Positions 1,889 through 63,135 of a DNA stretch of 64,000 bases are shown piece after piece. Position 1 is the first letter of the stretch, and every line of letters begins with the position of its first letter. Both the position numbers and the translations under genes were made by a program. The stretch is from positions 75,764,001-75,828,000 of the forward strand of contig OX597820.1 of NCBI GenBank assembly GCA_951406725.2, in the 5' to 3' direction. A model generated the notes under the pieces. That model did not search any database and was not told the origin of the DNA. It was given only the letters and a program-made list of their open reading frames with translations. Origin of the DNA: Octopus vulgaris. Its lineage: Eukaryota.

Positions 1889-2034
1889 TATACATACATA
1901 GATACATACATACATACATACATATATATATATATATATATATATATATATATATATATATATTAATTTTCTTTTATTTCCTCCACCTCACTCTCTATTT
2001 TATATCTTATCTAAATTAACTATTTTGTAACTAT

Positions 2035-2090
2035 CCTCTCACACTGATGAAAGGATATAATAACTATCCTGGAAACAGCTATAAGACCTG
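2035..2090 (+). ncRNA. Minimal type-I hammerhead-like motif (partly degenerate) in a short element between (TA)n tracts
   Basis: CTGATGA at 2044-2050, stem II aggata/tatcct, then GAAAC-AGCT-ATA. Stem I is weak. Confidence 0.55.
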
Positions 2091-4231
2091 TTTATAAATG
2101 CTCTAAATCTACACAGCTTTGGTGTTTTTTATCTCGTTACGAAAAAAATTCATATATATATATATATATAAATATCTATCTATTTACCTATATCTATACA
2201 TATATATCTACGTCCCTATCCAGGCCTGGTATATAACAACAAGACAGCCAAAACTCGGGATTTTAGCGAGACTGAACTTTATGTATGGATGACCCAGACT
2301 GTAAAACATATGCAACACAACGTTCTGAACAGAGTCCCATCCATAAGTGAAAGAAGCAGGATGGGTTGAAACGACCGTTGTACAAAATAAACATTAACAC
2401 CAAATCCATCTTCTGATTTTTGTTAAGGTATCCCTCTAGAAGAAGGCTAATTCCTATACAAACATGTTACTCTACTGTGTTGGATACCTTCCAATTTACT
2501 TGCCTCTGGGTTCCTTGGAATTGCTAATGTGAGTCGTTCCTGTATTATGCAAGACATACTCGACTGAAAGCATTTGCACGAGCATTGCTGATACACCCTG
2601 TGAGCGATGAGCATGCCTCTCTTTAAAATAGGTTATAATGTATGTATGCATGTATGTATGTATCTATGTATGTATATATGTATGTATGTATTTATGTATG
2701 TACGTATGTATGTATGTATGTATGCATGTATGTATGTATGTATGTATGTATGTATGTATAAATAGATGTGTGTGTGTTTTTTCCCTTGTTAACAATTAAC
2801 ACGGAAAAAATAAATAGTTACCAGGGTAGCAAAAAGTCACACAAGTAAAAATCACAATAAATATCCATCATTTTCTGTTAAAATGTCTTATTGACGAGTT
2901 TCATTTCTTCATTTACCCTGAAGAGAAGATTACATTGTTTTACACCATTTTATTCTTTTGGAATAATACCAATGATATCGGAAGTAAAGAATTTGAATAA
3001 TACCTGCGTTTAACTCCATTTATTTATATGTATGTATGTATGTATGTATGTATGTATGTATGTATGTATGTATGTATGTATGTTTGTGTGTGTTTGTGCT
3101 TTCTTCCCACCGCTTTACAACCGGTGTTGGATAATTTACATCCGATTTTAAATGAAAAAAGTACTAAGGTTGATTTATGGGACTAAAACCTTCAAAGACA
3201 GTGCCACGATCATGGATACAGTTCAATGATTAAAACAACCGGAACATGAGAGTAAATATTTGTAATTCTACAAAGAAGCGTTAATTAATTATTCATAATC
3301 TGCATGTAGCAGTAGGCTTTTAATATCCGGGTAATGGTAGACGTAGTGAATAAGCTTAGCAGAGCCACTACTTGAAAGCTTATGTTTTATACTCGAAGAT
3401 AATGTTCCTCGAACCTTTTGTTCGACTTTGAATGCTTTATAATGGGCTAAAGGCATGCAAATACCCCAGTAAATGAGCAATAAACACAACATTCTCGAGC
3501 AGAGTGGAAATAATTGCAGCAGTGCTATTATCATGGTAAATTTGTAGAAATGCCAGTTGAAACGCTTATTTTTCAGCGTATATACTATCAATTTTAATAA
3601 CCATTTGTCTATTCTACTTAAATTAGATACATCGTGATTGGTAAATTAGTTGCCCTGTTCGTCCGGGGATAATATCTCTTATGGACGCGTTGTGTTTAAA
3701 AACATAATATATATCAGTAACAGACGGAAATCGCCCAGAAATGGAGGTGAGATGCTAGACGTACATTTATCGGTCGTTGTGCTTTGTTAGTAGCGTATAC
3801 TCATTGCAACCCGAACTCTATGACACAACGCGACTCTGCTGACATCATTCTTTTATCTTTTATTCGTTTCCGTCATTAGACTGTTGCCATGCTACGGCAC
3901 CACCCCGAAGAAACATTTTCAGTCAAACGAATCGAACCCGGTAGTTATTTTCTAATGTCTGATTCTTATTCTATCGGTCTGTTTTGTGGAAGCGATAAAT
4001 TATGGAGGCTCAAAATACACCAACAGTTGTTTAGCAGTGGTAGGGAGTCAGAGACGCAAAGACAACTACATACACACACAAACAACAAACCAAGAAACAC
4101 ACACACACACGCATATATGTGTGTGTATATATATATATATATATGTATATATATATATATATATATATATATATATATATATATATATATATATATACTT
4201 GCATACATACATACACACATACACACACACG

Positions 4232-4510
4232 AAGTCGCTTGGCTTAGTGGTTAAGGTGTTGCACTCGCAATTGTGAGATTGTGGGTTCGATTCCCAGACT
4301 GGTCGTTGCGTTGTATTCTTGAGCAAAGCACTTCATTTCTCGTTGCTCTGCGATCATTTCGACATCTGACGTGTGGAACCCGTTGCACCTGTACAGGTAA
4401 TGTCGATCTGATGGAGGGAGTAAGCGTATGTCTTTACAAGCATTTGGTCGCCATAAACAAATGATTTAAGTGATTAAGATTGTCGCACCCTCGTACATCG
4501 TCTGACGACG
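4232..4510 (+). mobile_element. tRNA-derived SINE family C
   Basis: A box tggcttagtgg, B box ggttcgattcc, CORE-like ttgagcaaagcacttca. Related copies at 27215-27515 and 50788-51080. Confidence 0.8.
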
Positions 4511-61290: not shown

Positions 61291-61934
61291 CGCAATTCTA
61301 CTGCTCGTACCAACATCTAGGATACTAGATGACACACTTGAAGGAAGAGGCTCTTGGACAATAGTACTTGGAAGATACTAACAAAGCGGGGTAAGTTCTA
61401 CATCAACGGTGAAATTGGCAACTTTAGCAATGCGTTGCTTTCAATGCGATGCTTATCCATGCTTTTTAATTGAATTGAATTATTATTTTATATATATTCA
61501 TATATCACCTTTATAGATATTTATACTCCGGCGAAATTCAGAAATCAGCTCGTAAATAAATTAAAAACTTCGAATCCATCAGTATGCGCTCACTCACACA
61601 CACACAGTCGCATATCTAAGTATGTATTTATATATGTATGTACGCACACGTGTCTACGCTAATAGGTACAGAATGATCAATACACACGCAGAAGAGAGTC
61701 GATTCACATGAAAAAGAAAGTGAACAAAACAATATGACTACTTGCTTCTCGGGAAGTTCAATTTCAATATTGTTCTTTGTTTTTAAAGATAATCAAACCA
61801 AATAGTCATAATTTCCAGCCTCTCATCCAATGAGTATTTCCGCCAAATGTGATGAAAAACCCCTCAGCCGTTTTCCAATAATTTTGTAAACAGTCAGACA
61901 AACAGAAAAAGACGAGTGACTGCAATACCCTGCC

Positions 61935-62345
61935 TTCGTGGCTGTGTGGTAAGAAGCTTGGTTCCTAACCACATGTTCCTGTGTTCAGTCCCACTATATG
62001 GCTCATTGGGAGAGTGTCCTGTACTTTAGCCTCGGGCCGACTAAAGCCTTGCGAGTGGATCTGGTAGATGGAAACTGAAAGAAACCCGTCCTATTTATAT
62101 ATATATATATATATATATATATATATGTATATATGTATGTATGTATTTGTGTGTCTGTATCTGTCCCACTACCATCGCTTGACAACCGATATTGGCGTGT
62201 TTAGGTCCCCATAACCTAGCGGTTCGGGAAAAAAAAATAAAAGAATAATACTAGACTTACAGAGGTTAAGTCCTGGGATCGATTCGTTCGACTGAAGACT
62301 GTGCTCCAGTATGGCCGCAGTCAAATAGCTGATAAAGTAAAAGTA
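61935..62345 (+). mobile_element. SINE family B, full length
   Basis: Head gtggctgtgtggtaagaagc, internal (TA)n and tail gctccagtatggccgcagtcaaat. Confidence 0.85.
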
Positions 62346-62504
62346 TATATATATATATATATATGTATAAGTTAGAGGTGTTTAAAACCTCTAAGGGATG
62401 GTTAAACACAAAGGCACTCCTGGTGATTACCTGCGTAGGTACAGTTCTTGGTAAAATGTATAGAGTAGCAGGTAATTCAGCAGGTAAACCGTAGTTTAAA
62501 TTAT

Positions 62505-63135
62505 ATGCAGAAAGAAAATGGAGGGAAAATAACAGGAAGAGGTTGGTCGTTTGCGCCAGTAAGCCATTAAGTTAATTAATTTATAAAGAAAAGTAATAGT
62601 ACATTTCCGATCGATTTTGTTTACCAGTTGTAGTGTTAGACATCATCAGAATCCGAAGTCATATGTAGAGGTAAGAAGAGAGAAAGACATAGGGATCCAT
62701 TGGTAACGAGAATAAAGACCAAGAATGGTGAGTCTTACATTATAGTATGTTTCTTAGTTGATAATTTTGCTGCGAAGTTTAGCCAGAATAAACACGTAGA
62801 AAATATGCGTTTACTTAAACTTGGGACTACAGATCAAAATAACCTCCCTCCTACATACACTTCGCAGCAAAATTATCAACTAAGAAATCTACTAAAATAT
62901 AAGACTCACCATTCTTTGTGTATAATCTCGTTACCAACGTATCCTTATATCTTTCGCTCTGCTTAGCTCTACATATGACTCTACATTCTGATGATGTCTA
63001 CCACTAAAAGTGGTAAACAGAAACGATCGTAAATGTACTATTACAACCACTTTTCTTTATTAATTAACTAAATTAATGGGTTACTAACACAAACGACCAA
63101 CCTCTTCCTGTTATTTTCCTTCCATTTTCTTCTTG
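62505..63135. mobile_element. Foldback element (arms about 62511-62779 / 62859-63130); PLE-like
   Basis: aaaataacaggaagaggttggtcgtttg / caaacgaccaacctcttcctgttatttt and ttcttagttgataattttgctgcgaagt / acttcgcagcaaaattatcaactaagaa. Confidence 0.9.
62982..63037 (+). ncRNA. Canonical minimal type-I hammerhead ribozyme
   Basis: tacatt-CTGATGA-tgtctaccact aaa agtggtaaaca-GAAA-cgatc-GTA-aatgta, with palindrome ACGATCGT. A decayed mirror copy lies on - at about 62600-62652. Confidence 0.85.

Follow-up and report, generated by a model that had tools for sequence, protein, structure and literature searches.

What the scattered hammerhead-like ribozyme motifs of an octopus genome descend from is the question raised by a 64,000-nucleotide (nt) stretch of Octopus vulgaris DNA (GCA_951406725.2, contig OX597820.1, positions 75,764,001 to 75,828,000), here called the window; all positions are coordinates within it. 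A first-pass annotation had described seven type I folds in short elements docked at microsatellites, and had read them as a mostly non-autonomous ribozyme-retroelement system. The preferred reading, at a probability of roughly 0.78, is that the loci are decayed, 5'-truncated 3' ends of several unrelated families of Penelope-like elements (PLEs), each with a minimal type I hammerhead ahead of a TA-type microsatellite, into which the elements likely inserted.

The window has a G+C content of 35.5%, and a short tandem repeat mask covers 22% of it. Two descriptors, both composed with the sites already known, were run over its whole length: a strict one for type I folds, requiring the core, both helices I and II, a palindromic helix III and UH, and a looser one in which the helix I requirement is dropped. 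The strict descriptor finds six matches (16011+, 15913-, 26572-, 36225+, 40424+ and 62988+), and the looser finds eight, adding 2044+ and 41931-. Dinucleotide-shuffled sequence gives means of 0.165, 0.19 and 0.16 for the former (3 x 200 shuffles) and 0.29-0.33 for the latter (3 x 300 shuffles), with a maximum of 3 in each case, and the strict descriptor has no match on the reversed window. The motif frequency is not that of shuffled sequence, which it exceeds about 25- to 35-fold with both descriptors; as a set the hammerhead motifs are real. The CTGANGA or CCGANGA core, the downstream GAAAC and the palindrome are present at all seven sites first annotated, of which four pass the strict descriptor (16011, 26572, 40424 and 62988) and six the looser one (with 2044 and 41931), while 11091 fails both. 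The first-pass annotation did not list the hammerhead at 36225+, the twins at 15913- and 62649-, the half copy at 26590-26774 or the long helix II at 26572 and 41931. With 36225 in place of 11091, seven insertions pass at least one descriptor, and the proposed density of about one motif per 9 kb stands.

Table 1. Features of the window, with position, strand and the evidence for each (RT, reverse transcriptase).
Feature	Position	Strand	Evidence
Insert of 188 nt holding the 2044 hammerhead, (TA)n arrays on both sides	1964..2151	+	looser descriptor
Fourth inverted insertion, flanked by microsatellites	10379..10775	.	inverted-repeat search
Doubtful hammerhead-like motif (11091), core and GAAAC	11044..11091	-	fails both descriptors
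Putative inverted PLE-end insertion, flanked by (TA)n arrays	15759..16092	.	self-BLAST, inverted-repeat search
Inverted twin (15913) of the 16011 hammerhead	15857..15919	-	strict descriptor
Minimal type I hammerhead (16011)	16005..16067	+	strict descriptor, fold, helix II z
Putative inverted PLE-end insertion, flanked by microsatellites	26399..26774	.	self-BLAST, arm comparison
Hammerhead with 93-nt helix II (26572)	26456..26577	-	strict descriptor, z -6.15
Further hammerhead (36225)	36221..36306	+	strict descriptor
Very small hammerhead (40424)	40420..40454	+	strict descriptor
Hammerhead with 88-nt helix II (41931)	41821..41935	-	looser descriptor
Broken N-terminal RT fragment of a PLE, separate insertion	60772..61286	+	41% identity, E 2e-28 to P0003
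Putative inverted PLE-end insertion, flanked by microsatellites, multi-copy family	62372..63134	.	arm comparison, contig mapping
Decayed inverted twin of the 62988 hammerhead	62600..62655	-	core starts 62649; GAAA and UH altered
Best-formed hammerhead (62988)	62982..63037	+	strict descriptor

A canonical CUGANGA ... GAAA ... UH core is found at 2044, 11091, 26572, 36225, 41931 and 62988, and a non-canonical U4C variant at 16011/15913 and 40424. Helices I and II are both satisfied at the six strict matches (wobble-rich at 40424); helix I is weak at 2044 and 41931, and neither helix is supported at 11091. Taken alone, helix II is significant at 26572 (Table 1), 62988 (z -3.84), 16011 (-3.72) and 2044 (-3.12), and not at 40424 (-1.88), 41931 (-1.68), 36225 (-1.29) or 11091 (-0.05). 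The palindromic 15.1-16.1 segment, compatible with a dimeric helix III, occurs across the loci, with self-duplex energies of -14.1 kcal/mol at 41931, -10.0 at 62988, -7.4 at 16011, -5.8 at 36225, -4.1 at both 2044 and 11091 (end pairs lost, with a C15.2-A16.2 mismatch), -2.9 at 26572 and -1.7 at 40424. The G10.1-C11.1 pair is direct at 26572, 36225 and 40424; at 16011 and 41931 it forms with an additional unpaired base, and at 62988 it is replaced by U-A.

The 62988 hammerhead has a helix I of 6 pairs, a helix II of 25 nt, a perfect 8-nt palindrome and its cleavage base at 63031; that of 16011 has a 31-nt helix II, a near-palindromic helix III and its cleavage base at 16061. Helix II reaches 59-93 nt at three loci (36225, 41931 and 26572), of which only 26572 is convincing alone; there a 24-pair basal stem, closed by the G10.1-C11.1 pair and partly retained in the inverted arm, could be a passenger hairpin, and helix I has 5 pairs (cleavage base 26461). 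At 36225 a 59-nt helix II accompanies 4 pairs of helix I (cleavage base 36302), with (TA)n 37 nt downstream, and at 41931 a perfect 8-nt palindrome accompanies a bulged helix I (cleavage base 41825), with (TA)n 123 nt downstream. The 40424 hammerhead, with a 12-nt helix II, no loop III and (TA)n 99 nt downstream, has a weak helix I in which 2 of the 4 pairs are G-U. The 2044 hammerhead (core 2044, cleavage base 2083) is minimal and decayed-looking, and 11091 has no helix I in a constrained fold; an imperfect palindrome of 62 nt lies upstream of it, at 11371-11432. An Rfam scan returned no hammerhead family among the best 150 of 401 matches, which are microsatellite- or hairpin-driven, of miRNA type and below gathering score, and a scan of prokaryotic genomes for the 62988 motif gave 0 matches.

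As first described, the elements differ in primary sequence. BLAST among the hammerhead elements of the window gives zero cross-matches, and the best pairwise similarity outside the core reaches z 2.8 (28 pairs), so that by sequence comparison they are mutually unrelated outside the core. Grouping 2044 and 11091 as one family was considered and rejected: 13 letters are common to them around GAAAC, and outside the core they are no more alike than shuffles (z -1.4).

The loci share a position relative to microsatellites, and the docking proposed at first is borne out. Among eight independent loci (the twin at 15913- dropped), an alternating-dinucleotide run begins within 125 nt downstream in seven, against a background of 18.5% of positions (p 3e-5, with the cut-off picked afterwards); a median test gives p 0.002, and pure (TA)5 lies within 125 nt in six of the eight. 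From the cleavage base to the downstream run the distance is 36-123 nt in these seven, the exception being 11091 at 260 nt, whereas the distance to the upstream run is 80-1578 nt, which places the docking at the 3' end. This polarity supports PLE ends, because in (TA)n-targeting PLEs the hammerhead sits about 100 nt before the 3' end (PMC8557442).

The architecture of the insertions points in the same direction. Three hammerhead loci (16011, 26572 and 62988) are inverted two-arm insertions flanked by microsatellites, with 5'-truncated arms, and they make up three of the eight local inverted repeats found in the microsatellite-masked window; one more, at 10379-10775, contains half hammerheads. 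In the 15759-16092 insertion, which is young, the arms are 97% identical and meet at an A25/T18 tract, and the minus arm only carries an extra tail of ~70 nt. At 26399-26774 the plus arm is a half copy (26590-26774) that begins inside helix II and that bears the extra tail, of ~30 nt. The arms of 62372-63134 show 86% complementarity along 189 nt, and the minus arm only carries an extra tail of ~140 nt. In the last two pairs the two arms are cut at different 5' points. At 10379-10775 each arm retains no more of a hammerhead than its 3' half, with GAAAC, the palindrome and GTA, and one arm carries a tail of ~115 nt. 5' truncation, an inverted copy and a one-sided tail are thus combined at three of the eight hammerhead loci and in the 10379-10775 insert.

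Published PLE insertions are strongly truncated at the 5' end, are adjoined by an inverted copy that is itself 5'-truncated, and bear at one end a tail of 30-40 bp (PMC8557442). Because an inverted 5'-truncated copy with a one-sided tail is this signature, the three loci are read as PLE insertions, which upholds the link between hammerheads and PLEs made in the first-pass annotation; two of the tails here exceed the published 30-40 bp. Separately, the tail end of 10379-10775 resembles that of the 62372 insert (z 6.0, 1/1000 shuffles, 36 pairs tested), a likeness that may come from a PLE terminal hairpin motif common to both.

The 62988 element belongs to a family with many dispersed copies. 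When four public contig sets were aligned on 62372-63134 (depth there not being equal to copy number), three runs placed 285, 352 and 239 contigs, mostly at most 95% alike; a fourth run, guessed to be RNA, placed 30, which is no evidence of expression. Other copies of the family extend 5' of 62775, with loose ends of median 97-136 nt in the three runs, so the copy in the window is a truncation of a longer element. Both arms depart from the contig majority at many sites, as after neutral decay, and since the majority at 62636, 62653 and 62655 agrees with the paired state, the broken 62649- twin decayed on its own. Among 40 of 204 differences listed, unphased, three lie within 62982-63037 (one in helix I, G-U-compatible, and two at the helix II loop), with none in the core or palindrome; two-sided compensatory change in the hammerhead is absent from the same 40.

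The RT remnant that had been placed at 60800-61290 is confirmed at slightly different limits (Table 1). It contains a DKG motif, one stop and one frameshift; its relatives are proteins with RVT_1 and GIY-YIG domains, the named matches coming from corals, and by this homology it is assigned to the PLEs. By this motif it belongs to neither Hydra nor Naiad, in which the motif is DKT and DKA, respectively (PMC8557442). Between the remnant and the 62372 insert lie 1.1 kb of microsatellites and other repeats; the remnant is an insertion separate from the hammerheads, with no link found to any hammerhead of the window. Elsewhere, of two loci retrieved for the PLE protein P0003, one shows a comparable hammerhead 158 nt after the match to the open reading frame (ORF). 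In this locus (L001), on a metagenome contig encoding a protein with 93% identity to P0003, a minimal hammerhead follows a PLE ORF, at 2717-2760 (plus strand); the other (L002) has no hammerhead in the 280 nt examined.

Several observations weigh against PLE ends as the origin of the loci. No ORF traces were found upstream of the window's hammerheads, which truncation would also give. With tblastn, nine PLE proteins match the window at 60772-61295 only, and the open frame upstream of 62988 has no match to P0003 and none to a PLE protein in a set of 1.84 billion representatives, which gave two spurious repeat proteins. Multi-copy status comes from a single family, 62988. Helix I is imperfect at 2044, 40424 and 41931, the core is non-canonical at 16011 and 40424, and helix II of 36225 and 41931 is not significant alone. 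The missing ORF link is the main gap, and it gives an opening to a non-autonomous origin.

According to that alternative, which is improbable but likelier than the other rivals, most loci are short non-autonomous families, either retrozyme monomers or PLE-derived units resembling short interspersed nuclear elements (SINEs), that use proteins of PLEs and multiply by way of RNAs of their own, which are perhaps circular. The lack of any coding sequence found upstream of a hammerhead fits it, as do several inserts of less than 350 nt bounded by two microsatellites and the report that animal retrozymes derive from PLE termini and exist as dispersed monomers (bioRxiv 10.64898/2026.07.22.740005). Short size is, however, also predicted by 5' truncation; the arms of inverted pairs are cut at unequal 5' points, and copies of the 62988 family continue beyond the element's 5' limit in the window. 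Moreover, self-BLAST finds no direct copy in the window of the elements first annotated or of 36225, and no tandem repeat covers a hammerhead among the 150 of 334 listed. In animals, non-LTR (long terminal repeat) retrozymes consist of units of 150-450 bp repeated head to tail, every unit having its own hammerhead (PMC7229834; bioRxiv 10.64898/2026.07.22.740005). The window elements are likewise non-coding and carry type I hammerheads, but they lack direct repeats, their duplicates are inverted, and no head-to-tail tandem is seen. With no tandem retrozyme, three inverted 5'-truncated PLE insertions and a 62988 family that extends 5', the mostly non-autonomous system first proposed is not upheld.

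Chance folding in AT-rich, repeat-dense DNA is very unlikely as the source of the motifs, and is refuted for the set as a whole by the excess over shuffles, the polarity toward microsatellites and the inverted-arm architecture. One or two weak sites may still qualify, 11091 among them, and look-alikes do occur: candidate 9721- has no helix II and lies beside or inside a mariner remnant, and a scan of viral contigs for the 2044/11091 pattern gave 13 loci, none with a hammerhead fold. Domestication of some copies as regulatory ribozymes held by selection is the least credible of the explanations, since the 62988 plus arm, while retaining a perfect fold beside a broken twin, differs from the majority of the family at numerous other sites, the window yielded no host gene, and solo minimal hammerheads failed to cleave in vitro (PMC4209133).

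Other candidates and repeats complete the inventory. Candidate 23689+ was rejected, having no palindrome and no helix I; the segment at 23689-23765 (+) has a core-like motif and, preceding GAAAC, a hairpin of 11 pairs, lies directly ahead of an (ATT)n array and is possibly a much decayed hammerhead. Candidate 26883+ is a half site with no core. Candidate 15162- was set aside because its core is intact in one of three window copies and its helix II is off the junction; it belongs to a three-copy repeat, ~70-80% alike (14930-15191 on the minus strand, 56427-56652 and 55693-56004 on the plus strand), with one copy interrupted by another repeat. Sites of GAAACGTT within a 184-nt-period repeat were likewise rejected. 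That repeat, which resembles a tRNA-type octopus SINE, is abundant (13133-13581, 22777-23252 and ~10 further pieces), in partial tandems and inverted pairs. The eight frames scanned in the window hold transposon remnants only. Among the remnants are broken long interspersed nuclear elements of L1/Tx1-like type at 48038-50186 and 53126-53467 (+), with RVT_1 and zf-RVT matches, where the named relatives of 49473-50183 come from Argonauta hians and Octopus sinensis (two of three matches), pointing to an octopod host, and a mariner-type transposase at 9364-9705 (+; Transposase_1, E 1.4e-20).

On the preferred reading of PLE ends, published PLE biology suggests how such loci could arise. The GIY-YIG endonuclease of the PLE would nick (TA)n DNA, and its RT would begin copying uncleaved RNA not far 3' of the hammerhead, so that the DNA copies would keep sequence 3' of the cleavage site. 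The RT would usually halt early, so that most insertions would retain only the hammerhead-bearing end, and would sometimes leave an inverted second copy. In a tandem transcript of the parent element, two hammerheads could pair through the palindrome, build helix III and cleave, perhaps helped by the element's protein. The steps draw on an anole PLE, in which reverse transcription begins internally, on uncleaved RNA, from two sites that explain the tail, and in which the hammerhead cleaves only with protein present and is dispensable for insertion in vitro (PMC11167929), and on the dimer model for minimal hammerheads (summarised in PMC6765202). The solo copies of the window are probably inactive fossils, because they have no same-strand partner and, in inverted pairs, the antisense arm would block the sense hammerhead.

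Much of this pattern is already published: earlier work covers minimal hammerheads in PLEs, how much they vary inside one genome, pairs on opposite strands and the targeting of (TA)n, including one Octopus family. Thousands of minimal hammerheads per genome, extremely varied within one genome, have been described, most of them single and from truncated PLEs, with opposite-strand pairs 100-700 bp apart; one minimal Schistosoma motif failed to cleave alone and showed weak cleavage as a dimer (Cervera and de la Pena, 2014; PMC4209133). The window shares with these the type I topology, the palindromic helix III remnant and the many dissimilar families, and differs in the U4C core at two loci and in helix II, described there as 7-8 bp and here 59-93 nt at three loci. 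With the (TA)n-targeting, endonuclease-bearing PLEs it has in common the palindromic helix III, the 3'-end hammerhead, the inverted truncated copies and the one-sided tail (PMC8557442). In that source, Hydra-1_Obim of Octopus bimaculoides prefers (TA)n, and the hammerhead of this 2507-nt element, with a palindromic helix III, lies close to the 3' end, at 2403 (Files S1/S2). By eye no window motif fits the row for this element in the available table. Penelope-13_HM has an opposite-strand hammerhead pair as in the window, the helix III of Penelope-3_HM is letter-identical to that of 16011, and the longest helix II domain tabulated is ~52 nt, flagged deviant (PMC8557442).

Published counts stand at ~9,000 hammerheads in the Xenopus tropicalis genome, >6,000 in Acropora millepora and 126,247 in axolotl (PMC4209133; PMC7229834), beside a local density of about one per 9 kb here. 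A 2026 repeat annotation of O. vulgaris reports Penelope expansions with 30 recently active Penelope families, and its main text, in the part available, makes no mention of ribozymes (PMC13282606). In the literature searched, mostly non-subscription, no genome-wide study of octopus or cephalopod hammerheads or of an elongated stem II was found, and the density and the 59-93-nt helix II may be new.

Minimal type I hammerheads in PLE pseudo-LTRs were reportedly treated by Lunse et al. in 2017, in work that may already cover long-helix or octopus variants. It is conceivable, though offered as a speculation on the doubtful side, that few animal genomes are richer in hammerheads than those of octopods, with motifs of order 10^5 if the window is typical, and that a good share of these lie in undescribed PLE-derived families whose 60-90-nt helix II is missed by short-helix descriptors and maybe serves as a protein-binding or dimer-promoting platform. 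One motif per 9 kb over a genome size that we take to be ~2.7 Gb would give ~3 x 10^5, a figure from a single window chosen as unusual and a more permissive descriptor.

The loci add octopod families to the known class of PLE hammerheads. They form a natural panel, with helix II of 12-93 nt, U4C cores, palindromes of 4-9 nt and one very young insertion, that bears on the role of the PLE hammerhead and on its need for a partner or a protein. Were the same density to extend across the genome, such elements would be a sizeable, unannotated share of the octopus repeat landscape.

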